From Cyanophora paradoxa CCMP329 (lineage: Eukaryota > Plantae > Glaucophyta): a DNA stretch of 64,000 bases. A program made the translations under genes and the position numbers. Of this stretch, positions 6,931 to 64,000 are shown one piece after another (the first letter of the stretch is position 1; every line of letters begins with the position of its first letter). The notes beneath the pieces are model-generated. The model did no database searches. It worked only from the letters and a program-made list of their open reading frames with translations, and was not told the origin of the DNA. The stretch covers positions 19,959 through 83,958 of the forward strand of contig QPMI01000652.1 of the NCBI GenBank assembly GCA_004431415.1, written 5' to 3'.

Positions 6931-6989
6931 CCTCAAGAGAAGAGGCAGTGAGGGCGAGCGAGGGCGGGGGCGCACGAGGGGGTGCGAGA

Positions 6990-22395: not shown

Positions 22396-22444
22396 CGACG
22401 GCCGCGGGGGCCGAGTCCTGCGTGCCTGCGTGCCGCGGGCGCCG

Positions 22445-34951: not shown

Positions 34952-34991
34952 AAAGAAATGGTGTCCGGCATTAGAACATAGTCTCGAGCTT

Positions 34992-38961: not shown

Positions 38962-41424
38962 CTATTGTTCGCGATGAAATTCAAGGTAGGAGGGGATGCA
39001 ATGATGGCTATTCAGCGGAGACGTGGAGCTTAGCGCACCCTTTGAGGTAGCCTTTGCAGTTTTCGCCTTGGAGGGCATCAGAGAAGCAAGCGAAAAGGCG
39101 GAGAGGTCGCGGTCGTTGCCGTCTGGAGCGACGAAACTGCCGAGGGTAGGGCCCTCTTCATCCGGATTCTTGATGCGGAGATCGTGCTTAGCGCCCATCG
39201 ATTCCTCCACCTCCGCCCATGAAGGACCGAGAGCGGCTTTCAAGGGTGCGAGGACCTGGGCACGTGCGCAGAAGACGTCCTGGAACCCAACCATGTGCTC
39301 TGGAGATACGGACAGCATCCTCTCCATCAGGCTCTGATTCTTCTTGTCATTCTTGCCCGATGGACCTAGAGCGCACAGTGAGCGAAAGTCGATCGCGGGC
39401 GCCATCCATTTTCGAAGTCTACTGCCGGCGCTAATCCGACTGGTAAATTTCGTAAACTAGTGGGCAGCCGTAATGAAGATACGCGGGGCAGCATTGACAT
39501 CAATAGCGTCGGTCGGCGTGCATACCTGGATGCTTCCCCGCATCCCCGCTTGCAATCTTGACGAGGCGGAGATCGACGGGCCCGGGCGAATCGCGTTCCT
39601 CCCCGCCGATCGTGCTCGCACCTTGCACTTGTTTGCGAGCCGCGGAAGCTCTCTCGGCCTCTGACAACGAAAAGAGAAATCCCAGCGCCATGCCAAGCTC
39701 TCGGGGAATCTCTCCGCTGACTGCGCACGCGACAGCCGCTTCGGCATCCTCGGCGGTGAGCCTGTAATCGCGATTGCCGGTGCGGGCGAGCTCGAGCTTG
39801 GCCTGTAGTGCCTGTTCCAGCACGCGCCTGTTGTGGCTGATGATATCTACAATGCTAGCGCTGGACGTCTGTGGAATTGCGATAATAGAAGTGGGCGCCT
39901 TGAGGTTGTCCAGGTCTTTTGTGGCGGGGGGGCCGGGCGAGGCCAGCTGCGAGCTCGAGACCGATGCCCGAGGCAGTTGCGGCTGCTTGCCATCGCCATG
40001 AGAGGCTTCAGCTGCTGTCTCGCTTCCTGCCTGCTCGGGCGAAACGAGGAGATCGTCCAGAGAAATCCCCTCCGGAAAGTGAACCTCTTCGAGAGGGATG
40101 TGGCTGCTGCAGAACCAGCAAAACAGGCGGACACCCTCCAGATCGGGCGTCCGAACCTGCTCGCGCACGAAATCGCCTACGTGAGCTGATATTTATTATA
40201 TTTAAAGCACTTGCCGATCAGGCGTTCGCACGACACGCACGCGTGCACGCACCACGAACTTGGTCATGTTGGCATGCAGTGCATGACGATAGCAGTTCAT
40301 GCATGCGACGTGGTGGTTGACTTCGGAGGTAGAATCGTGCATGATGATGTAATCTTGCGATGCCTTGCCGATCATGTCCTTTGCAGCGTCCTCGCCTGGG
40401 GCGCAAACGCAAAAGTCGATCTTCTTCGGATCGATCGAGGAAAGCACTCTCTTTCGAAGGCGTGCCGAGGCTATGTCCCGCAGGGCCGCATCGTCGGGAT
40501 TCCACGTGCGGAGGGGGAGGAGAGCGAGAGTTTCGATGTCTAGCTCGCGCGTCATCGGAGACCGATTCTCACGACAAACCTCGACAGCTCCACCAGCACC
40601 TGCACGTGATGTGCGAAATATCAAATAGCGATCTTGGAGTAAATCATGATCATACCGAAACAGTATATATATTGAATAATGAAACTTGAATTTCGGGGAA
40701 CGATGGGGGGCGGATTGCGAATTGCGGGAGCTGAACCATAATTAAATATATAAACACTTCTAAATCTATAACCACGTGCACGTGGCATAGCCGAAGATCT
40801 AGAGAGCCCGTGGGTCTAGGGTGAGGTAAGCGATGTGCGAGCTGAGGCATACCGAGATGTTTGTCAAAGAGTGTCTTAAATGTCTCGTCCTTGTTGGCAC
40901 AAATCATCGCCTCCAGCAGACCACGGGATTGGCCCGCGCCGTGGTAACAATCAGCCAGAACACAGGTTTCGGGATTGCACAGCCAGCCTGAATGGGAACA
41001 ACACGTGTACATGGGCGCCTCTGAGGTTGACATCTGCGGCTGCAGAAAGCCGGACAGAGGAATAGAACTCAAAGGTCAGAAAACTGGAGCTCGCAATCGA
41101 TGGCGCGCGTGGGATAGGAAGGCTAGGGCACCGGTACCGGAGGAAGGATGGGGCCGACAATTGACAAGTGTGCGACAGAGGCAACGAATTGCGTGACGAG
41201 GGGATGGGTGAGGAGCTCGTAATCGTTGGCGTAAACGGTGGCACCCGAAGACAATAGTAGTGCGATTAGAGAGAGGAGGCACGGTGCGCATGCATATGTG
41301 CAGCCCTTGACTTCTTCACCGAAATTCTCGAATTCATCGCCGTGAGAAGCACAAGGGGATTTGAACCCTTTCAGCTCCTCGAACTCAACATCGAACTGGA
41401 GCCTTGCCAGAAGAGCTTCTGCCG
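38962..41424 (-). CDS. Probable multi-exon protein with RING-like Cys/His domain
   Basis: FCVC...NHHVACMNC (40202-40624) followed by LFCWFCSSHIP (~40100). Exon boundaries are approximate. Confidence 0.4.
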
Positions 41425-41931
41425 CCATGGTAAGCAACCGCTTCGGCGTTTGATATGCTGACAGGAGAATTCGATTCTCGCTTCTCGGGATGAGAAACTT
41501 GAGCGTGTCCAGCGGTAGTGCCACCTCTTCGTCGATGAGACGCTGTCCGCATGTGTTAGAGCACGATGATTGAGCCGGAAAAAAGGGAGACGTCTTGGAG
41601 ATCTAAAAGCTACACGTCGGAGTGAACAAGATATTCGTTGACTAAACGTGCGACCAGAGACGAACCTTCACGTCACCATGCATACAAATAACCGACAAGA
41701 GGTGAGCCGTTTCCGCCGGCCGCAAAACGTGCCTTCCATCTGGAGAAAGCCGCCCGCCGGGGCTGGCCGCCAAGAGCATCGAGCAGTGCATCATTCGAAA
41801 AAGAAAAAGCCTGGGTCCGTAGAAAGGGTCGGGCAGATGCCTTGCACTGTCACCTGCGAGATGCCGATGATTACTAAGTATAAACGTATTTCATTTGAAT
41901 GCCCGCTTGCGGAGACCGAGATTAGCACAAG

Positions 41932-43950
41932 CTACACACATTCACCAAGAGTCTTGCCAGTTGCAAGGGCATCTCGAGCTCGAGGGGCGCCGGTTGAAAT
42001 TCGCTTATTACAAGAAATTACTGAGGCGCGAAAGTGAAGTCGATGTGCTCCCGGAATTCCGTCGCCGGCCCAAAAGAGTACTCTAGTCGCGGTCTCGATT
42101 CCATGCTGCAGAAGCATGGTACCCCCGTCAAGCTCCGTTCGAACGATGAGCCTTCTACAGAGGGTGTCGAGAAGGGTTGCGAAATCGGCGGTTGGTAGAC
42201 TCGTGGCTGCAAGTACGACAAGCCACTCCGTGGCACAAGGATCGTGAAACTCGTCAAGCTCTGCGGCGCCAATGCAATCGAGAATGCGGAGAAGAGGCCA
42301 GTTCTTTTCTAGCATTAGTGAAAGGAATATCCCGTCGACTGGGAATCCATTCCGAAGAGCAAGGAAAATGATCTCATCCAGCCGTTTCAAGATCTGTCGG
42401 GTTTGCAGAAGTCCAGGAGTTGGTACCACATCGGATTCACAATCAGAGTAGGTCTCGAAAACTTATACATATTCACTTTCATCTTGAAAAACATTCCGAT
42501 ATTCCTATGTGTGCATTTATGAAAACGATTCGAAAGCTTGCGCTTGGCGTTTCAATGACTTTAAAGCTTATGATCAATCGAGTTACGATGTTCGCGCATG
42601 CCGACTCGCAATTATTTTATGATTTCCAACTGATCGTGAGACACATGTACGCACATCGTCGGCGCTCAGAGACCAGTCGTGCTTCTTCTCACTGGCAAGG
42701 CGTGTGCCTGCAAGTCCGTCCGACTGCAACATCGAGTTCTGTAAAAGATGGAAATTGAAGTTATTTCACACTAACAAAGATTTCAAGGGATTCGACTGCG
42801 ATTGAGATACCTTGACATCGATCCCGGAGTCGACGTCAGAATCAATGGTTGCGTGCGTTTGCGTACGTGCGCGCAGAAGCGCGGTGATTCCGTCGTCTCC
42901 ATCTTCGAGTAAGCTCTCAATCTGCGGTCGATTCGAGTCAAGCGTCAAGCGTATCGCAAAGGCAAGAGAGAACATCTAAATTGGGGGTCGCGTCCACTTA
43001 TTTAGCTTGCAAAAACTATGTTCGTGTACGCGTTTACACATTCCTCGACATAAATGTAGCGAAAACAAAAATGCATGTGCGCACCGCCTCGCGGGCGAGG
43101 GAGAACAGGTCCTCCATAGGAACGGGATCATCCCAAACCGAGGCTTCCTGCAGCTGCTCATCCTCTTGATCTGAGCCACATTCGACGGATTCAGGTCCGG
43201 AGTCACGGTCGCCCACGTGCACCACATGTACAGGCGCTGTTTTCTCCGATTCGTGTTCAGATGTCGACTTTCGATGGTGCAGCGGAATTCTAAGGCATCT
43301 ATCTTCTGGAACGTTGCGCATCGTTTGTGTGGGGTCACGATTGGTAGGACCAGGCCCGACAAGCGCTTGAGAGGAGAAATGGGGGGGCGGAACTTGAACA
43401 GGTTGTAGTGAGGTTTTGTCATGCAACGTTTCCCGTAGGAAGGAATATGCCCGACCGAGAACTTCGAGAACCTGGATGCATCCAGCCGCATCGTCAAGCA
43501 ACTCACGCTGCGTCAAAGCGTTTCGCTGGGCCAGCGGCGTGCACGTGGGAGAGGGGCTCATTTTGGAAAAGAGCCACTTCAGCACATCAGGGTGCTGACA
43601 CAAAACAATGCCGAGCTTCACGGGGTGATGCACGCCAACCTCCCAGCCGCCTACTGTTTTAATCCAGCGCACTGCGGAAGTCCTTGTCACGACTTTAATT
43701 TGATCGAGACTCGAGACTAGTTGATCGCGAACGTTGATGCATTTTACGTATGCATGCTTAATTGATCTAGATCAATCTTGAATTAGTTTGCATCTATACG
43801 TATACCGTACATGCATGAACTTTGATCTACAAAAGATCTACAGGATGCCGCGCACCCTTGAACAACTCCCGTCGATCATTCATCCAATTCGGCCCGATGG
43901 GATCTCCTTCGTGCACGTGCTCATGGACTTCCCGCAAGAAAGTCAAGCTC
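41932..43950 (-). pseudogene. Fragmented hypothetical gene
   Basis: Exon-like ORFs 41932-42429, 42766-42975 and 43034-43690. The upstream segment near 43830-43925 appears interrupted by stops. Confidence 0.3.
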
Positions 43951-44301
43951 ATGCAGTCAGCAATGTTCGAGACGTCGTCTAAAGCGTAGAAGCGATCAAT
44001 CTTGTGATCTGCCAGAGGCACAACTTGTACATTAGAATGGGACAAATTAAATATTATATTAATTACATGCATATGCGAAGCATCTAAGCGTATCGCTGTA
44101 AATAGATGTCAACGTTCTAGCGCAAACGTTAACTATAGATCTAGATAGCTGGCTCGTTTTCGAACAGATTTTAATTTCAATTGTAATCAGCAAGCTAATT
44201 ATAAACTCAAAATTATCACCAGGTCGGAAATTAATTACGCGTGCTCCGGCTCATGATTTAATTTAGAGCAATAACGGTGTCAAACGTACGCGTGCTCATG
44301 A

Positions 44302-45570
44302 TCACGCACCCGGGTTTGCGGTCGCGGAGTTCATGGTTGAGGCTTCCGAAGGCGTCGACGTCGCGATCGACGTCGACGTTAATGTCGCATCCATGTGCCC
44401 GGTGGCCGATCGTGAGAGTGCACTGAAGCACGGGCAGCTAGCGCAACCCTTTGACAGGATGTCGAGACAGGAAGTAATTTCCTTGACTGTCCAAGAGCAA
44501 CCCACAACCAGAGAGGTGCAGAGGCCGCCGCGGACGAGCGGGCAGGCGCCCATCTCAACAAGCACAGCAACAGTGATCAAATACTCTCCAACACGGCTGT
44601 TGCTATTGCTGGCAACCTCCGAAGTCTCACGGCAAAGTCTGTCAACGGCAAACGCACCGCAGTACACGGCCAACATGAGGGCCCGCCCCTGCGCCGCGTT
44701 GGGCGACGCTCCAGCTCCGATTAGGCGGGCGACCAATCGAGGCCACCCGCCGGCTGCAGCTGCTGCGAGGGCATTGCTGAGCTCGGTAGACAGGGTGTCG
44801 GATCCGTCGTCGACGTCTCGAGAGTTGGAGGTGCTAACATGCATGGCGGCGAGAAGCTCGTTCACGGCTGCTTCGTTGCCTTCAAATGCGGCAGCGGAAA
44901 GCGCGGAGCTCTCGATCACCGCCAAAAGCTCCAGATCCAGACCACCAATCACGCCAAGGAGGGGCTTGCATTTGACGCGGGTCATCAAGTCGAACCAGTG
45001 GACACTGGGGGCACTGTCGTCGCTGCGAATCATTATCTCTAACATGCGAGATACGTTGAAATCGTTCCGCGCAATCTGGTAAAGGCGCTCAATGTCCGCT
45101 GCAAGGGCCTCATCGCATTCGTGATCGAGCTCAGAGGGAGCAGCCCAGAGTGGCGGGTCGAGCTGGCCATGGCTGCCTGGGGGCCAGATGGGGTCGAAGG
45201 TGGAATGACGTTCGTTCTTATTCCACCGCATCTTGGACCCCTTGAGAACCCCCAGCCTGAGAGCACAAGGCGTATACGTACTCAGCGTTAATATAACGTT
45301 GGGCATACATGGAATTCTTGATGGGCCGGGGGTTCGGGCGGAGCTCGCCATGCTCGTACCGTTTACAGGCTGCCTGCTGGGCGAACCGACTGGCCTTTTG
45401 CTTCTCCGGAGCCAGGTCTCGATCCCCGTTCCTGGGCAGCACAGCCTGACGCCGCCGCTCCCACGGAAGAAAGATGCGATACGCTCCGAGCGGGTCGCGA
45501 TCAGCCACGCCTCGGACGAGGCCACGGTCATGGGTATACGTAGCCGGCGCCGACCGCGGCACGGAAACAA
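44302..45570 (-). CDS. Ankyrin-repeat protein
   Basis: SALSAAAFEGNEAAVNELL and NALAAAAAGGWPRLVARLIGAGASPN...ALMLAV match the ankyrin consensus. Start uncertain. Confidence 0.7.
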   Translation of the reverse strand: MFPCRGRRRLRIPMTVASSEAWLIATRSERIASFFRGSGGVRLCCPGTGIETWLRRSKRPVGSPSRQPVNGTSMASSARTPGPSRIPCMPNVILTLSTYTPCALRLGVLKGSKMRWNKNERHSTFDPIWPPGSHGQLDPPLWAAPSELDHECDEALAADIERLYQIARNDFNVSRMLEIMIRSDDSAPSVHWFDLMTRVKCKPLLGVIGGLDLELLAVIESSALSAAAFEGNEAAVNELLAAMHVSTSNSRDVDDGSDTLSTELSNALAAAAAGGWPRLVARLIGAGASPNAAQGRALMLAVYCGAFAVDRLCRETSEVASNSNSRVGEYLITVAVLVEMGACPLVRGGLCTSLVVGCSWTVKEITSCLDILSKGCASCPCFSALSRSATGHMDATLTSTSIATSTPSEASTMNSATANPGA

Positions 45571-48326
45571 ACATCGCCATAGCCAGCACCTAGCCGCCAG
45601 TACGTAGATACCCGACGCGTACGTCGACGTCGACCTGCGTTGCGCGCGCGCGCGTGATCAGGAGCTCGTACGCGTGCCGCGGTGATCACTGTCGTGCGCA
45701 GCGCCGGTGCCGGCGTCAGAGCGATATCGATACACTGTGTGACACATGTACAGGCTGTTCGTCCTGCATACTAAGATTATTTAAGGCCGACATGCATGCC
45801 AGCGCCCTACTAGGCTAGCCGGCGCCTATAGCTAGCTATAGTAGCTATACAATGATATATATATATATTATGTATTTCTAGTGGATCTATCATGGTATAG
45901 CGCCGCGGCGAGAGCTACATATATATACACTTGCAAGCGATAACTAGCTTAGTATATACGTATATACGTAGCAATCGATCGCGAGTCGGCCAAGTCCGAC
46001 AGGTGTGGACCATGTGGTCTGACAGTACTAGCTATAGCGGCGATGGTCACATCTCTGCGTACGCGTCCCTATATATGTACTTGTCCATATTGACGCCGGC
46101 GCCCCCGGGCTGGCCATGGGCGGCCCGGGCCTAGGCCTCAGGGCCTGCGATTGCGTGGCGGCGTCCGGCCGGATATATATATATATATGTATCGTCTGAT
46201 GGCATCCAATCTATATATAGTACACTCACGCGGATCGCAATCGGCCGGGGCGGCCCGCGCAGGCGCGCGCGCAGCCGGAGGCTTATGAAAATGCATATGT
46301 CGGCTCGAGCCTGACTAGTACTCGAGCTCGGTGGTCATGTATGATCATGATATATGGGTCGGCCGCAGACCGTCGGACCTAATTATATAAGCTGGCCCAG
46401 TGGGCCGGACGGCCAGGAGCGAGACACAGATCTAGAGGTGAGAGGCAGCCGCTCACGTTCAACGATTGCACTCAATGTCGAGATGCTCTTCGAAGCCCTA
46501 CTCCGCGGGCGGCTGCAGCCGCTGAGGCCGAATGGCCGGCACGGTCTGACGAGGCGCGCGCGGCCGGCCCAACTTCGCCGCCCAAGGTATATGCAACTGC
46601 CGAGAGCCCGCGGCCGGATCGGAGTCACGGGAAGCTCAACTTAGTAAGCCCGTCGACCTCGTCGGACCGTCGGACTGGAGAAAGATCGTTCAAAGGTGGC
46701 TTAAGCTTGATAGCTGCAGGCTGCAGCCTGCAGCCTAGGCCAAGGCCTGCATCATGGCTGCATGACTAGCAATGTCTAGCCTAGTAGCATGCAGTTGTCT
46801 CAGAGCCTCGAGGCTCGAGCTCGGACTCGGATCCGGAGAGTCTAGATCTGAGCGCGCGGCTACGTAGTACGTACGGTACTGTAGTATACCGTGGTAGCGT
46901 CGTTACGGTACTACGGTACGTATACGCGTACGCGTATACGTACGTACTACGTTACCTAGTACTGAAGTAGTCTACGTATACGTAATTAATTAATTATGCA
47001 AGGTTGAAGTTGCATGTATGCATGCTTGGCATTGCATTATATAATTATATAATTATATATATGGCAATGACGGCATGCCGCGGCCGCAGTACCAGTACTA
47101 CTGTAGGTCCTGTGTAGTGCGCATGCGCGCATGATCATGATCATGAGTCGCGGGACTCGCGGCATGATCGACCCGGATAATGGCCATGGGCCGGATTCGA
47201 CCGTCGGATCCCCGCCGATTCCCGGGTCCCCGGTCCCCGGACTCGGAAGTCGGGACGTCGACGTCGACGGACTAGTACCGTAATATTTTAATGCACTTAA
47301 TTAATGCACTTAATTAATGCGCCAGATAATTAATAATACTGTCAATCCACAAAGTTAGGCGTATACACAATGATAGGCGCGGATAGACGAGGGTGGGTAG
47401 CACTGGGTACTCGTCTAACTAAAACCTCGTCTATATGTCCCTAGCTTTTGCGTAATTTCTTAGGTAAATTCAAGCTAATTCCCGTCCGACGGTCATTCTT
47501 CTATCTTTGTGAACGTCTATATCACAACGGGTGGGCAAACGTCTATGAAAAGCGACGCCTAACTTAATGACATGACCGTCGGACAGTACCGGTGCCGAAT
47601 CACTGTCGATAGAGTTTTCAAGTTTCTCGCTGCGCTAGGGGTGCGGCTTGACCGCCAGAAAGTCGGCTCAAGTCAAGCCAAGCCCGGGGCGCTCGCTGCC
47701 AAGCCAAGCCAAGCCGGCCGACCGGCCCGGACAAGCGCTTGGCCACTTGGCCGGGTCAAGCGCTTGGCCCGGCTTGAGGCAAGCCGAAGGGGGGGTACAC
47801 TTCCGCAAGCCCTCAGCGCCGCAGCGAAATGCTAGAGCTAGCGCTTATTGTGCTTTGAATTCTAAAGAAACACATCTAAACACTGATCATGATCATGAGC
47901 TGCTAATATATCGACTCGGCAAGCTCAGAGCTCGCGACGGCGCAGGCCGTGCACGTGCGCGCGCGCGCGCGCCGCGCCTCGATATCGATCATACCTGCAC
48001 GCTCTTCAGACCTCTAGATCGACATTCGGTCCAACGGTCGCGATGCCATCGCTAGCGCTCGCAGGCGCGCGCGCGCGCGCCGCGCCGGCTTCGAATTCGC
48101 TGCAGCTGCGTCGAAGTACCCCCCGCGCGCCGATACCCCCCTCCCTGGCCCCCCTCGGGCCAGGGCTTGAGCCGGCTTGAGCCGGCCAAAAGCCAGTCAA
48201 GCGCTTGACCGCCCAGCCCGGCTTGAGCTTTGGCTCAAGCGCTTGACGGCAAGCCGCAGGCCTACGCTGCGCTCGCGCTGCCAGGCTGGGTACCGGACCT
48301 ACTACCGGTACGCCGTTGTGGAGTCA

Positions 48327-50369: not shown

Positions 50370-50830
50370 TGCTGACAGATAGCCCGCCTGGTCGATTCCG
50401 GCTACGGCGCCTGTACCCCCCGACGGGCCCACGAGCTCTCTGGTGGGACGAGGCGGGCGGCGGGGGGCGGGGAGAGCGGGGGTACGGACGAACCGAGCCC
50501 CGCCGCTTATCGCCCGCCTGGTCGATTCCGGCTACGGCGCCTGTACCCCTGGGCGGACGCGCGAGCTCTCGGTGAGACGCGGCGAGCGGCCAGAGGGTTC
50601 GGGGGAAGCGGGGGGGTACGGACAAACCGAGCCCCGCCGCTTATGGCCCGCCTGGTCGATTCCGGCTACGGCGCCTGTACCCCTGGGCGGGCCCGCGAGC
50701 ACGTCGGTGAGGCGAGGCGAGCGGCCAGAGGGTGCGGGGGAGCGGGGGTACGGACGGACCAGGCCCGCCGCTTATGGCCCGCCTGGTCGATTCCGGCTAC
50801 GGCGCCTGTACCCCTGGGCGGGTGCGCGAG
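50370..50830 (+). repeat. Array 3, type-A half: 4 units of ~131 bp
   Basis: Core near 50388, 50517, 50652 and 50782. Confidence 0.95.
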
Positions 50831-50917
50831 CTCTTTGAGAGACGGGGGCGAGCGGTCGGAGGGTGCGGAAGCGCGCGAAGGGGTGGGTCGAGAGGAAAGG
50901 CAAACGACAGCGTTAGC

Positions 50918-52050
50918 AGGGGTACACGCACCGTAGCCGGAATCGACCAGGCCGCCCCTACTGCGAGCCAGCTGCTGCGATCCGTACGGGCCGCCGAGTG
51001 AGCGAGGGCGGGGGCGGGGGGGGCGCGTTGGAGGGTACACGCACCGTAGCCGGAATCGACCAGGCCGCCCCTACTGCGAGCCAGCTGCGGCGGGCCGTGC
51101 GGGCCGCCGAGTGAGCGAGGGCGGGGGCGCTCGAAGGGGGCGAGAGGCCTAAGGGTACACACACCGTAGCCGGAATCGACCAGGCCGCCCCTACTGCGAG
51201 CCTGCTGCCGCGGGCCGTACGGGTCGTCGAGCGAGCGAGGGCGGAGGCGCACAAGGGGGGCGAGGGGCCTAAGGGGTACACACACCGTAGCCGGAATCGA
51301 CCAGGCCGCCCCTGCTGCGAGCCAGCTGCGGCGGGCCGTGCGGGCCGCCGAGTGAGCGAGGGCGGGGGGCGCTCGAAGGGGGCGAGAGGCCTAAGGGGTA
51401 CACACACCGTAGCCGGAATCGACCAGGCCGCCCCTACTGCGAGCCTGCTGCCGCGGGCCGTACGGGTCGTCGAGTGAGCAAGGGCGGAGGCGCACAAGGG
51501 GGGGCGAGGGGGCCTAAGGGGTACACACACCGTAGCCGGAATCGACCAGGCCGCCCCTACTGCGAGCCAGCTGCGGCGGGCCGTACGGGCCGCCGAGTGA
51601 GCGAGGGCGGGGGGCGCTCGAAGGGGGCGAGAGGCCTAAGGGGTACACACACCGTAGCCGGAATCGACCAGGCCGCCCCTACTGCGAGCCTGCTGCCGCG
51701 GGCCGTACGGGCCGCCGAGTGAGCGAGGGCGGGGGCGCTCGAGGGGGGGCGAGGGGGCCTAAGGGTACACACACCGTAGGCGGAATCGACCAGGCCGCCC
51801 CTACTGCGAGCCAGCTGCGGCGGGCCGTACGGGCCGCCGAGTGAGCGAGGGCGGGGGCGCTCGAAGGGGGCGAGAGGCCTAAGGGTACACACACCGTAGG
51901 CGGAATCGACCAGGCCGCCTCTACTGCGAGCCAGCTGCCGCGGGCCGTGCGGGCCGCCGAATAAGCGAGGGGCGGGGCGCTCAAAGGGCCGAGAGGCCTA
52001 AGGGGTACACACACCGTAGCCGGAATCGACCAGGCCGGGCCCCTACTGCG
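50918..52050 (-). repeat. Array 3, type-B half: 10 units of ~120 bp
   Basis: Inverted core GGGTACACACACCGTAGCCGGAATCGACCAGG repeated. Confidence 0.95.
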
Positions 52051-52669
52051 GGCCAGCTGCCGCGGCCGTGCGGGCCGCCGAAGGAGCAACGAGGGCGGGG
52101 GGCGCGCGAGGGGCCGCGCGGAGCGGGGCAGCGGGCCGAGGAAAAGGGGGCGGGGCTCGCTGCAGCCCGAAGAAGCGGACCGAGCGCGGTGCCGGCCGAC
52201 TCGGTGATCGTCTTGCTCGCCGGACCCGGTGCGCCCGCACTCCTCCCCGCGTAGCGCTTCGCGAGGGTGTGGCGGAGAAGCGCGCGGGTCCGCACGCTGC
52301 GCGCCGGCGCCGCACGCGGCGGCCGCGGGACCGATCGATATCGACGGCCGGAGGCGCGCAGGCGGAAAAGCGCGGAAAGTGCGCCTTGGGCTCCGGCTGC
52401 GTCTGCGCTACCGCCCGAGCGCGGCGCCGTGCGCGCCGAGCTCGGGTGCCCAGCATGTGCGAATAGGGCACGCATACGTGAGCTTGTGGGCCGGAGAGGC
52501 ATCGGAGGGGCGCTGCGGATCGATCGCTAGCCATGGCCATGGGATCTTCGACTCAGTGACTGCGCCCGACCCGAGCACGAGCCGGGCGGGCGCCGACGCG
52601 ATTTTCGAGCTCAACAGGAGCCAAGGACTGCGCCAGAGGGCACTCGCGCGACGCGGCGTGCTGTTGAAA

Positions 52670-52697: not shown

Positions 52698-53654
52698 ACG
52701 TTGCAAACTGGCCCCCCCCCCCCCCGAAAGAGCTGCGCTTTGGGCCAGCGTGCGTGCACGCGCTCGCCGAGCTGCGGCGGCAGCTGGCGGCACGCGGTGC
52801 GCGTGCTCGAGCCTCCAGGCTCCAGCCGCACGGCTGCGGCGAGTCTCTGGGTACACGCATTTCCACCGCCGGGCGGAAAAGCACGCTAGAGCCACAGCGA
52901 TCCCACGCACAGAGAGCAGCGGACCCCGAGCCGCGCTCGTGCGGGCGCTCGGACGCGCCCGAGCCGCGAGCCTCCCTTCTGCTCTCCCGAGAGATCTAGA
53001 GCCACGCCTCCGGCGGTTCCAGCTACCCGTGCGGTTCATGCGCCTCCCGTCGGTCGTAGCCTGCTCGGCGGCCGCGGCCCGCAGGCAACTTTCGATCCGC
53101 CGCGGCTGACGTGCGCATGCCTCTGTACATGTCCCTCGCCCCGGCCCGCAGGGCGCCGACGCCGGATTAAGTTTTTGCGCGCCCGCGAGCTCTTCCTGCG
53201 TTCAGTTCGAATCCAAAGCGGCTCATGCCTACGCGCGCCCGCGCGCCCCGGCCGGGCCCGCCCCGCCGGAGCCGGCCGGCGCTCAACCGGCCCAGGCCTC
53301 GGCGCCGGGCCGCGGCGCCCCGTCGCCCAGAGCGGATCGCCTGGTGCGCTTCGGGCCGCCTGCTCGGGGGCGGGACGCGCGGCAGCGGCCTGGCGAGGCC
53401 GGGCGCGGGGACGTCGGTCGGCACGGGGAGCCGGCCGATGCCCTGCGGCGGCGGCGGCGCAAGCGGCGGCGGGGCGTCCATCGCGAGGTTGAGCGCGGCC
53501 CGGCCGGGCGCCGCGCCCGTGGCGGGCGAGAGAGGGCCCCGCTTCGAGCGTCCCCTCTGGATCCGCTTCCCCGCCAACGCCAAGCCCTCCGCAGCCGGCC
53601 CGCCGGGCGAGCCAAGAGCGCCCGGGGCCTCGTGTGGGGGTGCGCCCGAGCACG

Positions 53655-55452
53655 GCGGGCCTGGTCCGTCCGTACCCCCCGCTCTCCCCGCCCCCCGCCG
53701 CTCGCCGCGTCTCACCGAGGGCTCGCGGGCCCGCCCAGGGGTACAGGCGCCGTAGCCGGAATCGACCAGGTGGGCCATAGGCGGCGGGGGGCTGGTCCGT
53801 CCGTACCCCTCGCTTCCCCCGCACCCTCTGGCCGCTCGCCGCGTCTCACCGAGAGCTCGCGCGTCCGCCCAGGGGTACAGGCGCCGTAGCCGGAATCGAC
53901 CAGGTGGGCCATAGGCGGCGGGGGCCTGGTCCGTCCGTACCCCCCGCTTCCCCCGCACCCTCTGGCCGCTCGCCGCGTCTCACCGAGAGCTCGCGCGTCC
54001 GCCCAGGGGTACAGGCGCCGTAGCCGGAATCGACCAGGCGGGCCATAATCGGCGGACCCGGTCCGTCCGTGCCCTCTGCTCGCCCCGCCCCCCGCCGCTC
54101 GCCTCGTCCCACCGACGTGCTCGCGGGCCCACCCAGGGGTACAGGCGCCGTAGCCGGAATCGACCAGGCGGGCGATAAGCGGCGGGCCCGGTCCGTCCGT
54201 ACCCCCGCTCCCCTGCACCCTCTGGCCGCTCGCCTCGTCTCACGAGGGCTCGTGGGCCCGTCCAGGGGTACAGGCGCCGTAGCCGGAATCGACCAGGCGG
54301 GCCATAACCGGCGGGGCCCGGTCCGTCCGTACCCCGCTCGCCCCACCCCCCGCCGCTCGCCTCGTCTCACCGGCGTGCTTGCGGGCCCGCCCAGGGGTAC
54401 AGGCGCCGTAGCCGGAATCGACCAGGCGGGCCATAACCGGCGGGGCCCGGTCCGTCCGTACCCTGCACCCTCTGGCCGCTCGCCTCGTCTCACCGAGAGC
54501 TCGCGAGCCCGCCCAGGGGTACAGGCGCCGTAGCCGGAATCGACCAGGCGGGCCATAAGCGGCGGGCCTGGTCCGTCCGTACCCCCCGCTCTCCCCGCCC
54601 CCCGCCGCTCGCCGCGTCTCACCGAGGGCTCGCGGGCCCGCCCAGGGGTACAGGCGCCGTAGCCGGAATCGACCAGGCGGGCGATAAGCGACGGGCCTGG
54701 TCCGTCCGTACCCCCCGCTTCCCCGCACCCTCTTGCCGCTCGCCGCGTCTCACCAAGAGCCTCGCACCCGCCCAGGGGTACAGGCGCCGTAGCCGGAATC
54801 GACCAGGCGGGCGATAAGCGGCGGGGCCCGGTCCGTCCGTACCCCCGCTTCCCCTGCACCCTCTGGCCGCTCGCCTCGTCTCATCGAGAGCCCGCGGTCC
54901 GCCCAGGGGTACAGGCGCCGTAGCCGGAATCGACCAGGCGGGCGTTAAGCGGCGGGCCCGGTCCGTCCGTACCCCGCTCCCTGCACCCTCTGGCCGCTCG
55001 CCTCGTCTCACCGAGGGCTCGTGGGCCCGTCCAGGGGTACAGGCGCCGTAGCCGGAATCGACCAGGCGGGCCATAACCGGCGGGGCCCGGTCCGTCCGTA
55101 CCCCCGCTCGCCCCCACCCCCCGCCGCTCGCCTCGTCTCACCGGCGTGCTTGCGGGCCTGCCCAGGGGTACAGGCGCCGTAGCCGGAATCGACCAGGCGG
55201 GCCATAACTGGCGGGGCCCGGTCCGTCCGTACCCTGCACCCTCTGGCCGCTCGCCTCGTCTCACCGAGAGCTCGCGAGCCCGCCCAGGGGTACAGGCGCC
55301 GTAGCCGGAATCGACCAGGCGGGCCATAAGCGGCGGGCCCGGTCCGTCCGTACCCCCGCTTCTCCCCGTCCCCCGCCGCTCGCCTCGTCTCACCGAGAGC
55401 TCGCGGCCCGCCCAGGGGTACAGGCGCCGTAGCCGGAATCGACCGGGCGGGT
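53655..55452 (-). repeat. Array 4: ~14 type-A units on the minus strand, with no adjacent type-B half
   Basis: GGGGTACAGGCGCCGTAGCCGGAATCGACCAGG recurs every ~122-138 bp. Confidence 0.95.
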
Positions 55453-55737
55453 CAAAACCGGACGACTCTCGGCGGGCGCCGTTTCGCGGCGCCCACCGCG
55501 GGGCCCGCGCGCCGGCGTTGGGCCCGCGGGGCCATCGCCCACCGCCGGCCGCCGCCCCGCCCGGCACGCGTCCTTCCCACCGTACCTCTCCCTCTCCCCC
55601 GCACCCCGTCTGCCCGCTTTTGCCCATCCGGCGGGCCCCGATGGGGCATATATAGGAGTCGCCGGCCCCCCGATCCTCCCGACGAGACCCGCAGGCCCTT
55701 CTGCCGGGGTCCTCCTCCTTCCCCCCTGCCTCCGGCG

Positions 55738-58061
55738 ATGGCGTCGCAGCCGGCGTCGGGGGCCCAGGTGACGAGCCCGCGGGGCGCGGCGGGCGGCGCG
55801 TCCGGCTGCCCGCCCCTCGACTCGCGGCCGGCCAAGGTCAGCCTCCCCGCGTTCATCAGCCTGGGGCGGGACCCGCTCCTCTCCTGCCGCCCGGCCTGCG
55901 CCCGCTGCAAGTCGGAGCGCATCCTCCCCCGATCCTCCTCTCCTGCGCCGCCGCCCGCCTCCTCGCCAAGACCGGCGCATCGTCCGTCAACGAGGCCTGG
56001 ACGCCCACCCGCGCCCGCCTCGACGACCTCAAGTTCAACTCGACCGGCTCGTTCGTCTGCCTCAGCTGCGCCCTCACCCTCCTCTCCGTCAGCGCCGAGG
56101 GCGGCGCCTCGCCGCCCCTCTTCACCTGCCCCAGCTGCGGCGACCCCCACCCGGCCGCCTCGGGCCTCGTCTGCAGCTCCCGCATCGACGCCCTCTTTTC
56201 CTTTCTCGCCTACATCGACGACGCCGCCTTTGCCGCCTCGTGGATCTCCGGCGACCTCTGCCTCCGCACGGCGCTCACGTACGCCCTCGAGCGCTTCCAG
56301 GCGGCCGCCGCCCAGGCCCGCGCCCCGCCGCCGCCGCCGGCGGCGGCCCCGCCCCGGCCCCGCGGCCCCCGCCGGGCGGGCCCGAGCTCGGGCTCCGGCT
56401 CTGGCCCCGAGCCGCCGCCCCGTCCGACGGATCCGCGCCGCCGCCCAGCCGCCGGCGCGGCGGCCGCCCCCTGGCCCCGGGGAGCCGGCCGCGGGCGCCA
56501 AGGCCCAGGGCGGCAAGAAGCGCAAGGAAAAGGGCGCCGCCTTGGGCCCGGGCCGGCCGCCGAGGAGGAGGGGAGGAGAAGGAGGAGGAGGGGCGGCCAC
56601 CGGGCCCTCGCGATCGCGCGCCAAGCGCGCCGCGACGTCGACCAAGGGCCCGGCGCGGGGCGAGTCGGCGGCCGAGCAGGAAGAGGGGGAGGACGGCGCC
56701 GAGGAGCGGGCGCTGGAGCGGCGCAAGACGCTGCGCCCGCCCAAGCCGGCGAGCTCCCCCGACCCCGAGGCGGCGTCGGCGTCGGCCTCGGCGCAGGGCG
56801 CCGGCCCGGGTCCGGCTCGGGCGCCGGCCCTCGAAGCCGGCGCGGCGGGCGGCGCGGAGCAAGTGGGGCGCCGGGCGCGACCGCCGCAAGGAGTGGGAGT
56901 CGGACAAGCTCATCCGCGTCCTCTACAACGCGTACACGCGCCCCAAGGACGAGGACGCGCGCTCCGAGTCGGAGGGGGCAGCTCGGCCGGGAGCGGCGGC
57001 GGCGGCGGCGGCAGCAGCGGCGGCGGCGGCAAGGGCAAGGGCAAGGGCAAGGCGGCGGCGGCCCCCTCGCCATCGAGGCGGGCCCGAGGGCGGCGGGGGC
57101 GGCGGCGGCGGCTCGGGCAGCGAGGAGGACGGCTCGCGCGCCGGCTCGCCGGACCGCGGGCAAGGAGCTCGCGGAGCGCTGGCGCAAGGCCCTCGCCGAG
57201 GCGGAGCGGGCCGAGGGCGGCGCGGACGACGCCGACGAGCTCGCCGAGGGCCCCGCCGGGGCGGGGGCGAGGCGAGGGCGGGCTCGACCCAGAGTCGCTG
57301 GAGGCCTACGACTTTGGGCTCGAGGCGGGGATCGACCCGGGGCTCATCGGGCGCCAGATCGACGCCAGCCCCGAGGCCGCGCGGCCCTCCTGAACCGCAT
57401 CGAAGAGGCGGGGCGGGAGCGGATCCGCTGCATCATGCTCATCGCCTGCTCCGTCCTCGCCGTCCACCAGGCCTACACGGAGCGCTACGGCCGCAACCGC
57501 CGCCTCTGGGGCGCCTACCGCGCCGAGCACCTCTGCGCAAAGTACGACCACATCCTCCAGGCGGCCGGCTTTCGCCTCGAGGTCAGCGCCCAAAAGGTGA
57601 GGTCGCTTCGAATTCCCTGCGGGAGGAGGGGGCGGGGGCGGGCCCCTAGCGCTAGCTGCAAGCACGCGTGCCCGGCCCGGCGTGCTTTCAACGTCGCTCA
57701 CCGGAGGCTCGCGCAGTCCGAGATCTACAACGACCTCGCGCGCTGGGAGAGACGCTCACGAGGTTCCCTGGCCTGGCGCGCGTCTGCGGGAGCGGCATAT
57801 CGGTCGTCGACTTTGTCAGCTGCTCCCGCTCCTGAAGGGCTGCACGAAAGAGGGGCGGACCAGATCCGGGAGCGGCTCGCGGAAGAGGTGCAGCGCGCCA
57901 AGGGCTTTGTCTTTGACGGCTCGGTGCTGGAGCTTCGGAGGCCGGCGAGAGCGACGGGGACGGGGACGGGGACGAGCAGAGCGAGGCGTCGGGCGAGGAA
58001 GGGGCCGCCGAAGGCGCCGGCGAGGCCGGCGCCAAAGGCGACTGACCGGCAACGAAAATAG
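55738..58061 (+). CDS. RING-like protein with basic/G-rich linker and conserved C-terminal domain (paralog of 25260-28162); frameshifted
   Basis: TATA-like ATATATAG near 55648. Motifs CRPACARCKSERILP/PILLSC...GSFVCLSC...FTCPSCG and WGAYRAEHLCAKYDHILQAAGFRL. Probable intron ~57597-57716. Confidence 0.65.
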
Positions 58062-58479: not shown

Positions 58480-59560
58480 TCAGGCGCTCTCGGTGTCGGC
58501 CGCCGTGTCTCCCTTCAAGCGTCGCGCAAGATCCGTGTCTGCAGGGCTGTCCAAATTCAAGGATCAGGACAGTCGCGATTAGCATCAATCCGAGCGTGAC
58601 ATTATAATTAAAGAAGCAGCCTGGCAGAGGGAGCTTAAGCCATGCTTATAATTATAGTTATAATCAAGGGACGGAAGAGGCACTGCAGCATTTGTAATCA
58701 AAAATAGGGCAAGACCTTACGCGTGCGCACCCGACCGTGACTCGCTTGCGGTGCTTGGCCGCGAGGACACCACCCTCGAACCAGCGAATGATGTGCGCCT
58801 CGGCGGCCTCGCGAATGGCTTGGATAGTGTCCTGCAAGACATGAAATACTAATCAGCCAGCTATTCGCACCCCCCCGCGCCCGGCACTGCGGCACGGGCG
58901 CGCACCTTTGTGAACCGAAAGTTAACAGATTGTTCACGAAGACCGGCCTCCACGTCTTCCTTGATCATCGCGGCCGTGAGCTCGCGCACCTGCGCACGTG
59001 CACGCGCCGCACAGCAGGGCACAGGGCTCGGCGGCAGAGGATAGTTTCAAGTTTTGAAGGGCCCCCACACGTACCAGGCGGCCGAACGGGGCCAGCGGAA
59101 TGAGGGCATTGTAGGTCTTCTGGTACCTGAACAGGAGCGGGGTTTCATTCAGAATTTATTTGTCACAGATCTAAATAGATTTAAACAAGAGTGAAATAAA
59201 AAACATTGAACGTACTTCACAATTTCGCGCTTTGCCACCGTCCCAGGGCGATGGCTGCGCGAGCGAGCGATTCTCACGTGCCGGGACTTTCTCTTCAAAA
59301 TAAAACGTAGGGAAGAGAGCAGGCCGACCGGAACGGCTTTCTCACTCCGCCCTCGCCCACAGCCTTTTTCCGCGCGGCTTTGGTCTTGAGGCCGCTGGCG
59401 CCGGAGCTCTTGAATGCCTTTCGCGGGGCCTTGTTTCCGGTGCCACGCTTGGCAGTTTGCTGCAAAATATAATTACAATGAACGAACTCGAAAGAACTAA
59501 GAATCGCAGATATGAATTCAGCGGCTTTCATGATCATTTTCCCACCTTGATGCGGGGCAT
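58480..59560 (-). CDS. Divergent histone H3-like protein, 7 exons
   Basis: Spliced at GT-AG sites it reads MPRIK|QTAKRGTGNKAPRKAFKSSGASGLKTKAARKKAVGEGGVRKPFR|HRPGTVAKREIVK|YQKTYNALIPLAPFGRL|VRELTAAMIKEDVEAGLREQSVNFRFTK|DTIQAIREAAEAHIIRWFEGGVLAAKHRKRVTVG|PADTDLARRLKGDTAADTESA*. This is colinear with canonical H3 throughout. Confidence 0.92.
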
Positions 59561-60697
59561 TGTTATATATGAGTAGACCGCGGGGTCAAAAGCCACTGGG
59601 CCACCGGGGGCACTAATCAAAAGCGAACGACATGCTTATCTGCTCGACCGCCAGCTGCAGCCGCTGGGCTGCAGGTCCGACCGTCCAATTCAGGCACGTG
59701 ATATAATTATATTCTGCCCGACGCCGGCGCAGCCGCGAGCACGCCGCGCAGCTCGCTCTGAGCGTGCAGGACGCACTGCATCATGATCAAGCTCAAGCGA
59801 CAGCGGAAAGCGGCCCGGGCGTATTCGAACCTTCCCGACCCGAGGCCAGGGAGCCCGGCGCCGGCTTCACGCCCGCAGACGATGCGTTCTATTAGCTCGG
59901 AATGCATCAGAAGAACGCTTGGAACGATCCCGGCAGCCGCCTCTGCGCTCGCGCCGCGCCAGGGCGCAGGGCCCGCCCCGGGCTCGGGCCCCCGACCAGA
60001 GCTCCGGCAGAGACGAAGCGCTCTATTAGCTCGGGCTTCACTGCAGATGCGAATTCGTGCCTTCTCGGCCCGCGGGCGGGCTCAGGCGCGCCAGGTCCGA
60101 CGGAAAAGCCCCGGCCGGGGTCGGCCGAAACCCGGGTACCGGGACCGCGGGAACTAACGATGTAAATCGCTTCCTAGCGCACCGAGAATGCGTTTTAGTC
60201 ACTCTGTTCCATGCCGAGCCGCCGGCCGCGATGCCAGAGGCCCATTGAAAGGTGCCACCAGAACTGGACCCCCCCAAAGGAGGCTATTCCGGGGCCCCTG
60301 AACGGAACCAAGGCCGTTTAAGGCATCTCCGAGGCCAGAGGCTCAGGAAAAATACCAGTTCCATACCCGGAGCGGATCCTAGGGTCTCGGGGGAGGCCCC
60401 CCGGACCCCCCCGCCCCCAACTCGCCAGGAGAGGCCCGGGGAATGGAACCGGCGCTCTATTTCAACACTACGAGACCCGCAGACGCTAAATACGCGCTCC
60501 CCGCGGCGCCGGGGCGCGCCGGCGGCGCCGGCCGGGGGCGGATCAAATCTGCGCCCCGAGGCCCCCCGGAGGCTCCGAGAGGGCCGGCCGAGGCCGGGGC
60601 GAGGGGCGGAGCCGGCCATATATAGGGGCCCGAGCTAATAGAAGGTCCACGGGAGCGAGCGGAGAGGCGCAGGGGGCGGGGCGGAGGGCGGGGCGGG

Positions 60698-63414
60698 ATG
60701 TTCAGCGTGGTCAAGGACGCCTACGAGGTCGCCGAGTTCGACGGCCTGTGGGGCCGGGACCGCCTGATCCTGCTGCGCTCCGACGCCGGCCTCGTCGTGC
60801 CCGTCGCCGAGCTGCGCCGCATCCTCATCTACGCCCCCGATGAGCCGCCGGAGGACCCCGACCGGGCGCTGGCGGACCTGTACCGCGTCCCCTGCAGGCC
60901 CGTCGCGAGCGAGGAGACGATCCTGCTGCTCGAGATGCTCGGCGTGATCCGCCGCGGGGCGCACCGGCCCGACGGGAGCCCGCCGCGCGTCGTCTCCCTC
61001 CGCCACGCCGAGCAGATCGTGTGCGAGCGGTGGGACGAGGACCCCGGGGTGAGCGCGAGGAAGCGGTGCGTCGCCCGCCACATCCCGCCGCGATCGAGCG
61101 CCGCCGGCTCGAGTCGTTCGAGCGCGTCGAGCTCCGCGTCCTCCGCCTCGGCCCTCCAGCGCCACCGCGTCTTTGCCCTCCGCTGCAAGCGCATCGAGGT
61201 CCCGTGAGCGGCGCCCCCGACCAAGCACCGCCCCGGCGCCCCGCCCGCCCCGCGCCCCACGCTCACCCGGCCTCAGGACGTCGAGTGGTACGCGCCCATC
61301 GCGTCCCTCGCGCAGGCGGCGTACGGCTCCTCGCGGGACGTCCCTCGCTGCGGGCCGAGATCAGGCGCAAAGCACCCCGACCTCGGGGCCGACTCGCCTT
61401 TTCGCTTCGAGGCACGGACCGACGTCGTCGGGCGGGCCCGCTTCGCCCTCCTCACCAAGGCGCGCGCCCGCCTCCCGCCTCCCGACGCGCCCGGGCGCCG
61501 GCTGATCGATATTGTGACCGCCCGCGGCCGGGGGGTCAGACGCTGACGCTGTACGCCGGGCTGAACGCCGAGGTCGAGGGCGAGGCGACGCGCGGGGCGG
61601 CGCGCAAGTGGGGCTTCATCAGCCTCGCCGGCGCCGAGAGGATCCTCCAGGGCCTGCCGCGCTTCGGACGAGCTCCTCGTGCCGTTCCGCCGCCAGCGCC
61701 TCGCCTCGAGGGCGCCGACGCCGCCGAGATCGAGGCCGCGCCGCTGCCCCTCGCCCCCGCCCGCCGCATCGCCATCTTTACGAAGCGCGAGTGGCTCACG
61801 GTAAGCAGAGGGACGCGCGGGGCCGGGGCGCGGGATCGAGGCGGAGGGGCCGGGGGCGCTGACGCGGGCGGCGGCGGCAGGACCAGCACATCGCCAACTG
61901 CCTCTCGATCGTGCTGGCGCGGGCCAGCGCGGCGCCCCGCGTCCGAGCCCTGTACCCCATGACGCTCGACATTGCGACGAGCCTCCTGCCGCCGCCACGC
62001 GCGCGCCAGCCCCGAGAAGCGCCGGCGCCGCGCCCTGGGGGCGGCGGAAGGAGGGGCGCGTCATCCTCTGCCCGTCTCGGGCGGGCTCGTGCGCGCGGGT
62101 CGGAGCGAACCTGGAGCGCGGGGGGCCACTGGACGCTCCTCGTATCTCCGGCGACCTGCGCCGCACCCGCTACTTTGACAGCCTGGGCGCGCGCCCGGAC
62201 CCGTCGCTGGAGCGGGCGGCGAAAAAGGCCTTTCCGAACTTTGAGTTCGAGGTCGAGACGCAGCTGCGGCTGCAGGCCGATGGGTACCAGTGCGGCATCT
62301 GTGCGCGCCCGCCGCCGCTCAGCGAGTGGTACCGGTACGGTGCAAGGGGAAGGACGCCGACGCACCCGTGCGCGCGCAGGGGTCCTCTACTTTGCGGAGA
62401 GCGTGGTGAGCGAGGCGCTCCTCGGCTTTCCCTGGGACGACGAGCTGCGCACCGGCGCCCTCCACTACCTGCGCACCAAGTCGCCCTCGTACGAGGAGAG
62501 AAAGGCGATCAACGGGCGCTTCATCGCGGGAAAGAGGGAGCACTTTCGGAGCCTGCTCGAGTCGGCGCTCGTCGGCGACGTCTACCTCTTCTGCGAGGCC
62601 GACGTCGCCGATCCGGAGCGCGTGACGCTCCCGCCGCCGGCCGCCGCGGGCGAGGCCGCCGCCGCCGCCGCCGCCGCCGCCGAGGGGAGGCCCCGCCGGC
62701 GGGCGGACGGGGGGCCGCTGGTCATCTCCTCGTCCTCTTCCTCGTCGTCCTCGTCGTCCGCCCCGTCCGACGAGGCCGACGAGGCCCAAGGCGGGGCCGC
62801 GGACGGCGGCGCCGACGGCGAGGCAGAGGGCCTGGAGCTGGAGGCGGCGCCGGAGGCGAGCGAGGGCGAGGGCGAGGGCGAGGGGGCCGCAGAGGGCGGG
62901 CGGTCGCGCCCGGAGCCGTACGCGCTGCCGGAGGGCGAGTGGAGCCGCGAGCTGCGGGCGCAGATGAAGCTCTTCGAGGAGTGGAGGACGAGGGCGATCA
63001 ACCCGGACCGCGCGGGGGCGGCCGTCGAGCGGAGCACGGCCCTGACGAACGACGTCGGTGAGCGGGCGCGGCGGCGGCGGCGGAGATGCATATGGGCGGG
63101 GCGGGGGACGGAGGAAAGGGGGCTCACGGGGAATCGACGCAGGGACGGTGGGGCGCTTCCTGGGGTACCTGGCGGCGAGGGAGGAGGTCAGACCGCTCTC
63201 GTTCGACGTCTTCTCGCGGGGGGACCTGATCGACCTGTGGATGCGGTTCCTGACGTTTCTCAAGGAGGAGAGGAAGCTCACCGCGGGGACGCTGAGCGGC
63301 TACACCAGCTCGATCATCATGGCCGCCGCCTTTGTGCACTCGAGGACGGGCGCCGCGACGGGGAGCGAGGGCCCGCACGCCCGCGCCCTGAAGAACGTCA
63401 AGGTCAGAGGCGCT

Positions 63415-63459
<45 letters not shown>

Positions 63460-64000
63460 GGAGGAGAGGGCGGAAGAGGGTCGGGGCGGGGCTACGAACC
63501 CGACGCCCGCCCGCCCGCAGGCGCAGCTGGAAAAGGAGAAGCGGGAGGAGCGCAAGTGGCGGCCGCGGGGCGAGAACTGGGTCGAGTACGAGCAGGTCCT
63601 GGGCGCCCGGCTCGCCGCCCTCGAGCAGTACGAGGGCGCGAAGACGGACTACGAGCGGGCCCAGGCCCTCCGCGAGGCCTGCCTCCTCGGCTTCCTCGCC
63701 GTCACGCCGGCCCGCGTCGGGATCATCCGCCGCCTGCGCGTGGGGGTGAGCCTGCGGCGCGACGCGGGGGCGTGGTGCATCGTCATCGACTCGATGCGGG
63801 CGGACGACGGGACGGGGGAGATGGCCCTCGCGAGCAAGACGGCCCGCTTCCACGGGGCCCTCTCGATCCCCGTCGCCGCCGTCCTGCAGGAGCCGCTCAC
63901 CCTCTTCGTGGAGCGCTTCCGCCGCCTCCTCATCCCCGACGGCGCCCCCGACCAGCAGTGGCTCTTCACCAGCTCGAGCGGCGGCGTCCTCAGCGAGAGC
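60698..64000 (+). CDS. Multi-exon fusion: N-terminal putative DNA-binding repeats + Ulp1/SENP (C48)-like protease + tyrosine recombinase (3' partial)
   Basis: TATA near 60619. Protease motifs: REWLT|DQHIANCL, GHWTLLV, RYFDSLG, QADGYQCG (1-nt frameshift near 62143). YR core-binding region: RFLGYL...FLTFLKEERKLTAGTLSGYTSSI. YR catalytic region: NWVEYEQV...LLGFLAVTPARVGIIRRL...SKTARFHG...WLF. The HxxR and Tyr motifs lie beyond the window. Confidence 0.8.
63424..63462 (+). repeat. (GA)n microsatellite in an intron of the recombinase gene
   Basis: Direct reading of the sequence. Confidence 0.9.

Follow-up and report, generated by a model that had tools for sequence, protein, structure and literature searches.

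At the end of a 64,000-nucleotide stretch of the Cyanophora paradoxa CCMP329 genome (contig QPMI01000652.1; the window hereafter), a plus-strand gene joins a CE-clan protease to a tyrosine recombinase in one reading frame. Judged from the sequence, the fusion is confirmed as real, with two intact active sites. We consider the product likely, at a probability of roughly 0.6, to be the transposase of a multi-copy, Crypton-like DNA transposon in this alga.

Translation of 60500-64000 revealed a seven-exon gene that runs from an ATG at 60698 to the window end. A search with the last exon recovered its own database model, P0001, along with P0002. P0001 breaks off at base 64000 without a stop codon, and the source contig may therefore end there. 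The missing C-terminal end is supplied by P0002, an unbroken C. paradoxa model of 1,517 amino acids that is near-identical to the window gene and contains, in order, a Dachshund-like DNA-binding fold, a CE-clan (C48) protease, an acidic linker and a tyrosine recombinase. The parts of the window gene are as follows.

60619-60624, plus strand: TATA-like box, a putative promoter element by sequence, about 75 bases 5' of the start codon
60698-61203, plus strand: exon 1, with the start codon, the Dachshund/Ski-like fold (about 60698-61080) and the first part of another N-terminal subdomain; 4 frame-breaking indels
61277-61459, plus strand: exon 2, after a GT-AG intron (61204-61276); 2 compensating indels; 3' end uncertain
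61540-61800, plus strand: exon 3, with the end of the N-terminal region and the WLT of the protease WLxD motif (Trp at 61792)
61881-62300, plus strand: exon 4, the CE-clan/C48 protease core; 5 frame-breaking indels
62380-63057, plus strand: exon 5, with the C-terminal helices of the protease, then the acidic low-complexity linker (about 62620-62900), then the helices that open the recombinase
63143-63402, plus strand: exon 6, the recombinase core-binding (SAM-like) domain; 85 of 86 residues identical to P0002
63521-64000, plus strand: exon 7, cut by the window end, the recombinase catalytic domain; 158 of 160 residues identical to P0002

The 3' end of exon 2 follows from a putative GC-AG intron (61460-61539) placed by comparison with paralogs; P0002 cuts about 30 bases earlier. 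Exon 5 is the physical fusion point, and none of the 225 codons checked there is a stop, with 218 identical to P0002 residues 451-676. A preliminary description of this DNA had proposed an Ulp1/SENP-type protease and a tyrosine recombinase in one gene, and the stop-free exon 5, the unbroken P0002 and the retention of the fusion in a distant second family all bear this out. The frame is continuous across the fusion, but the window as written is not one frame and carries 13 frame-breaking indels within 60698-62300.

The protease motifs lie where they had been placed in that description. The WLT/D motif spans the intron at 61801-61880 and QADGYQCGI/W spans the intron at 62301-62379, and the catalytic set comprises His 62127 (in GGHW), Asp 62177 (in YFDS), Gln 62273 and Cys 62291, in the order H, D, Q, C. 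These four residues are kept in paralogs and in metagenome relatives. Against the Pfam C48 profile (PF02902), P0002 reached E 0.005 and 17.1 bits, below the curated cut-off of 20.7, as were the paralogs P0003 and P0004 (14.4 and 16 bits); lone window pieces of either domain gave no match above the Pfam cut-off. A profile built from four sequences and compared with PDB profiles matched a CE-clan protease at E 2e-9, XopD at 6e-4 and SENP1 at 0.9.

We also compared structure models of two relatives, rather than of the window protein itself: P0004 (predicted local distance difference test score, pLDDT, 69.7) and P0028 (pLDDT 73.7). Residues 1-187 of the P0028 model aligned best with SnCE1 (Z 13.6, root-mean-square deviation (rmsd) 2.6, 155 residues aligned), with further matches to OtDUB (Z 12.6), NEDP1 and adenain (11.0 each) and SENP5 (10.7), and the P0004 model aligned with OtDUB (Z 7.5, rmsd 3.1, 113 aligned). 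A Foldseek search of the PDB with a two-domain model returned nothing at E <0.001, and its first two ranks were OtDUB and Cre. The family shares its fold and W-His-Asp-Gln-Cys layout with SnCE1, OtDUB, ChlaDUB, XopD, NEDP1/SENP8 and SENP1/Ulp1 but is only 12-21% identical to all of them. Its closest structures are CE-clan deubiquitinases and dual-specificity enzymes, and in the comparison with the P0028 model, enzymes acting on SUMO, ubiquitin and NEDD8 all fall within some 3 Z units of each other. Because neither yeast Ulp1 nor SENP1 is the best match, SUMO specificity should not be assumed, and the earlier label "deSUMOylase" names one option of several.

For the recombinase, R828 (63713) and K869 (63836) lie inside the window, and R944, H978 and Y987 were read from P0002. 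We counted conservation in the 61 relatives with a near-complete recombinase domain, out of 141 with any match, and found R828 in 61, K869 in 60, R944 in 61, H978 in 59 and Y987 in 57. The His of the HxxR motif is replaced across the family: the commonest residues at this position are K (30 of 61), N (14), S (6), R (4), H (4) and T (2), with Arg in P0002. With His in just 4 of 61 members, its loss does not refute activity. Beyond the window end, P0002 thus has R944, H978 and Y987 in place and lacks the His of HxxR.

A 54-sequence recombinase profile matched PDB profiles of XerC-like proteins, XerD and the Tn1549 integrase (E 3e-6 to 7e-4, XerC-like best), and residues 564-907 of the P0004 model aligned with XerH (Z 13.0, rmsd 4.8, 282 aligned) and Cre (Z 12.2); the P0028 model aligned with Cre at Z 11.4. 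Phage_int_SAM matches occur in paralogs and relatives, P0003 matches XerC/XerD, 14 of the 54 profile members match the PHROG integrase phrog_1, and single window exons yielded weak Cre matches (E 0.18). The family has the fold and the R-K-R-H-Y catalytic set of Cre and XerC/D/H, from which it differs by the replaced first His of HxxR and by extra N- and C-terminal domains. Neither GCR1_C nor DUF3504 was matched in Pfam searches of P0001-P0005 (E up to 1) or 59 relatives (E up to 0.01), and by this domain test the recombinase is neither CryptonF nor CryptonA.

Further domains flank the two enzymes. Residues 6-108 of the P0004 model match Dachshund (1l8r; Z 8.6, rmsd 2.9, 93 aligned), and the second half of the N-terminal region weakly resembles the N-terminus of recombinase-only relatives (E 0.004, probability 8%). 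At the C-terminus, full-length copies carry a zinc-finger-like motif, followed by a beta-rich domain that is conserved and by an AT-hook; the C2H2-like finger of P0002 reaches Pfam E 0.19. Two further candidates were set aside. An internal duplication in the N-terminal region was unsupported (E 0.31), and a GIY-YIG domain, found at E 5e-7 in P0002, occurs in this one of four aligned models and may be gene-model read-through.

Several lines of evidence indicate a multi-copy family. By their database accessions P0002, P0007 and P0008 are C. paradoxa proteins, and P0002 and P0006, 162 of 165 residues identical at the N-terminus, lie on different named contigs; the protein records hold three or more near-identical copies, besides several families that have diverged. 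P0003, P0004 and P0005 share the domain order of P0002 at 51-52% identity. A profile search of 1.84 billion representative sequences found 491 at E up to 0.001, protease-only matches included, and 150 of these were listed. When 152 proteins were scanned with domain profiles, 10 carried protease and recombinase together, answering the call for a domain-architecture search, 9 carried the protease without the recombinase, and 2 had the N-terminus only. Two of the 10 are P0015 and P0028, from contigs of 18.7 and 11.5 kb, intron-free metagenome open reading frames (ORFs) that are 21-25% identical to the algal proteins, end in a chromodomain and share family-specific protease features with them (YPM and an NxxF helix); P0121, P0136 and P0142 are protease-bearing pieces of the same clade. 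A quick tree of the recombinases puts the two clades with a protease side by side at the base of a 42-member group, and the protease label requires 3 changes compared to 7.7 in shuffles, one of them due to P0058, which starts after the protease region. This pattern is compatible with one protease gain followed by later loss.

The recombinase otherwise groups with unnamed environmental proteins. Scans of plasmids, viral contigs and JGI metagenome contigs, which were exact-pattern or single-collection scans and thus weak, found no relative. As a separate observation, the protease-less relative P0022, which has a weak chromodomain match, is found on many contigs of 8.4-9.2 kb within a cluster of 28 members, and this may be the size of a complete element.

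Cryptons in the broad sense are multi-copy elements with a recombinase and no reverse transcriptase, with a 4-6 bp terminal direct repeat, no terminal inverted repeat and no true target duplication. There is precedent for C48 together with a tyrosine recombinase, since the cited sections of Kojima and Jurka (2011, PMC3212892) report a C48/Ulp1-related peptidase alongside the recombinase in the oomycete CryptonF-2_PS and CryptonS. The CryptonS peptidase is termed "an additional protein" there and is a second gene according to PMC13465315; CryptonS is otherwise marked by a conserved C-terminal region and TATGG termini. The CryptonF-2_PS peptidase is worded as being "in addition to a YR", which would also fit a fusion. 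As described in these sources, the oomycete Cryptons are likewise eukaryotic DNA elements that pair the two activities, with no reverse transcriptase seen, whereas the Cyanophora protease is N-terminal in the same frame and its recombinase matches neither GCR1_C nor DUF3504. Ginger1, Mutator and Helitron transposases carry Ulp1 or OTU domains, which have been suggested to act in transposition or repair (PMC2836005). These intron-containing elements also put a transposition enzyme and a ubiquitin-like protease on one chain, but with DDE or HUH enzymes and a C-terminal protease in place of a tyrosine recombinase and an N-terminal one. In the partial texts that a literature search reached, with subscription journals and Repbase outside its range, we found neither a one-chain fusion of C48 to a Xer/Cre-like recombinase nor this clade or a Cyanophora element of the kind. 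C48 with a tyrosine recombinase (oomycete Cryptons) and Ulp1 fused to a DDE enzyme (Ginger1) are already described in the literature, and the one-chain C48-tyrosine recombinase may be new. What ubiquitin-like proteases do in transposons is still only suggested, as far as PMC2836005 goes in the part consulted. Many unrelated transposons have acquired them, and a one-chain fusion makes their role testable; the family would also enlarge the eukaryotic recombinases by a big clade, so far without a name, that lies between Cryptons and viral integrases.

The covalent intermediates that topoisomerase I and Flp form with DNA are tagged by their hosts with SUMO and ubiquitin. Because covalent recombinase-DNA adducts resemble those that hosts tag for destruction, we propose that the fused protease removes such tags protectively. 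The N-terminal fold, together with an AT-hook or chromodomain, would place the protein on DNA. The recombinase would excise the element as a circle, and the circle would integrate at a short matching target via a covalent tyrosine-DNA intermediate. The tethered protease could strip ubiquitin-like tags (ubiquitin, SUMO or NEDD8) in cis from the recombinase-DNA intermediate, nearby chromatin or repair proteins, and this removal would keep the host from destroying or silencing the recombination complex. The recombination steps follow from the known chemistry of tyrosine recombinases and, by analogy, from the Crypton model of circle excision and integration at a short matching target, together with the activity that has been observed for CryptonF-1_cRei (PMC3212892 and PMC9977147, in the sections cited).

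To examine the frameshifts in the window, we aligned P0002 to the window exons. The alignment requires 13 frame-breaking indels, plus one in-frame codon, between 60698 and 62300; the event near 61165 counts as one in this alignment and as two in RNA contigs. There are no frame-breaking indels after 62380, so that all precede the recombinase part. Over 60686-61203, 61274-61483 and 61514-61802, the DNA run X1 shows 3, 2 and 6 gaps, respectively, without any substitution; it is gap-free over 63154-63404 and 63494-64000 in the recombinase exons. A second DNA run, X3, shows 10 and 4 gaps, again without substitutions, over 61274-61802 and 61863-62142. RNA contigs show at least 8 indels (at 61085, 61149, 61164, 61666, 61703, 61734, 61989 and 62143), and similar single- or double-base gaps, at least 12, occur in both DNA runs upstream of the gene. 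Indels without substitutions are typical of long-read consensus error. Since the independent DNA runs differ from the window by gaps and by hardly any substitution, the frameshifts are very probably assembly or sequencing errors. The indel near 62143, singled out in the preliminary description as a place to consult reads, is thus present, as one of 13 rather than the sole defect.

We next turn to RNA. The contigs came from four runs of two studies, for which the RNA type was guessed, none being recorded as RNA; X20 and X24 yielded short pieces only. They reveal a spliced transcript of the opposite strand.

60607-64000, minus strand: spliced antisense RNA over the whole gene, with about 11 introns of 48-167 bases and the same joints in two studies
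Minus strand, first six joints in RNA contigs: 60828/60878, 61183/61270, 61344/61398, 61775/61863, 62033/62110, about 62312/62366
Minus strand, last five joints in RNA contigs: 62466/62542, 63041/63138, 63166/63280, 63386/63499, 63732/63900

There were 15 joints in all; 4 with at most 30 flanking letters and long unrelated skips were set aside, and the remaining 11 tile the gene. Six of the 11 read as CT..AC, and small shifts bring the others to CT..AC or CT..GC. Eight joints have clean borders; GT..AG occurs at none of these, and 6 show CT..AC/GC within 2 bases, against a background of 4.7%. We therefore assign the introns to the minus strand. Those examined are absent from the DNA runs X1 and X3. 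The RNA shares its variants at 60978 and 62238 with P0002 and so likely comes from a P0002-type copy. A protein gene on the antisense strand found no support, as three antisense ORFs had no Pfam match and each frame of the joined 3' part has 2-5 stops; in the joined 5' part, however, one frame is open over 156 of 156 codons, and with several exon borders uncertain the RNA may still be coding. An intron-bearing antisense RNA thus overlies the entire transposase gene and likely keeps it quiet in culture. The expectation of one sense transcript found no support here, the spliced RNA being antisense only, and separate protease and recombinase transcripts were not seen either.

Several observations weigh against the transposase reading. 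None of the 15 RNA joints matches any of the six sense introns and the RNA contigs retain sense-intron sequence, so that translation of the fused protein is hypothetical, with the limit that assembled contigs drop rare forms and a low sense transcript could escape. As multi-copy element contigs can reflect a sister copy, the error reading of the frameshifts is not proven at the window locus. The recombinase occurs without a detected protease in 131 of the 152 relatives, many of them fragments, so that the protease is dispensable in sister clades, and the 3 tree changes come from a tree built by quick search. Finally, the recombinase's neighbours in the Atlas, at a score of 0.97, are unnamed clusters that include two labelled Preplasmiviricota (Viruses 100%), and these neighbours fit a polinton-like virus origin as well.

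The gene could accordingly serve as integrase to an endogenous polinton-like virus or to another DNA virus that has integrated. Its protease would be a captured enzyme, for maturation or for deubiquitination, and the viral genes would lie in the DNA past 64000, outside the window. Polinton-like viruses are marked by major and minor capsid and packaging ATPase genes within terminal inverted repeats. This account agrees with structural matches to the recombinases and Ulp1-like proteases that algal giant viruses encode, and with the report, in the cited portions of PMC4642659 and PMC12220804, that polinton-like viruses use tyrosine recombinases and occur in C. paradoxa. The recombinases of OLV11-like elements, polinton-like viruses and algal giant viruses described there have the same Xer/Cre-like core-binding and catalytic fold; however, the viral clusters listed are stand-alone proteins of 325-339 amino acids, with protease fusion unmentioned in those portions, whereas the window family is fused with no capsid module seen. 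Six spliceosomal introns and a host-like guanine-cytosine (GC) content speak against a viral gene, and the AT-hook or chromodomain tails fit a chromatin-targeted transposase. A Pfam search of 62 long window ORFs, all upstream, detected no capsid, packaging ATPase or reverse transcriptase family, although Pfam covers capsid genes poorly, and four viral-contig scans (A1, P0015, P0022 and P0014) found no relative by exact pattern, a weak test. We regard a viral integrase as unlikely.

That the window copy is a silent or decayed relic, either because its frameshifts are real or because the whole family goes unexpressed under a host antisense transcript, appears distinctly unlikely. The 13 indels, the restriction of spliced RNA to the antisense strand in four runs of two studies, and the broken or truncated look of the paralog models P0004, P0006, P0008 and P0010 would fit decay, but the indels come without substitutions, are corrected in two DNA runs and recur as like gaps upstream, and the catalytic residues are intact among paralogs that are only 51-52% identical.

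The linker bears on another account, in which the protease would cleave a polyprotein within the acidic linker and free the mature recombinase, as adenain and I7 do on viral precursors. The linker is long and predicted to be disordered, adenain is among the structural matches (Z 11.0), and each of the 6 Gly-rich linkers from the window clade contains Gly-Gly. These linkers are 8-16% Gly, however, such that Gly-Gly is expected by chance; neither of the 2 metagenome linkers has it, the linkers show no conservation of sequence, and deubiquitinase-type enzymes score higher (Z 12-13.6). The self-processing protease suggested in the preliminary description thus gains little from these data, and we consider it improbable. 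Domestication as an immobile host chromatin enzyme is very improbable: the gene is intron-rich and adjoins a histone H3 variant, and Crypton recombinases have been domesticated repeatedly (PMC3212892, in the section cited), but domesticated forms described there lose the catalytic tyrosine, which the window family keeps, and near-identical copies lie on different contigs.

Building on the Crypton-like transposase, we tentatively raise the possibility that the family represents an old superfamily of eukaryotic tyrosine-recombinase transposons outside the four Crypton groups, with descent from a viral-type integrase, a protease that would guard the covalent intermediate and dedicated control by a multi-intron antisense RNA.

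Upstream of the fusion gene lies a histone H3-like gene.

58510-59560, minus strand: divergent multi-intron histone H3-like gene with about six introns (Pfam Histone, E 2.4e-5)

It stands head to head with the fusion gene, about 1.1 kb upstream, in an AT-richer island (GC 0.46-0.64), and from its sequence could be a centromeric or other H3 variant, or element cargo. Self-comparison of the window by tblastx gave noise only, and Pfam matches among the 62 long ORFs were limited to a fragment of an AAA protein, a set of ankyrin repeats and one weak hit to a zinc finger. The AAA ATPase fragment (33316-34338, minus strand, E 2e-4) and the ankyrin ORF (44305-45657, minus strand, E 5e-4) lie inside a lower-GC stretch (about 28000-48000, GC 0.50-0.66). 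Tandem arrays of 120-160 base units with one common 14-base core occupy 5070-8427, 21136-23383, 50382-52113 and 53653-55451; arrays of opposite strand abut three times, and lone cores lie at 14537, 14669, 31284 and 47190. They may be transposon ends or a satellite by their sequence, and no link between them and the fusion gene was found in the window. Directly after the last array, a gene at 55656-58061 (plus strand) encodes Cys-rich zinc-finger-like motifs (weak PF23475 match, E 0.004), and RNA contigs cover its 3' end.

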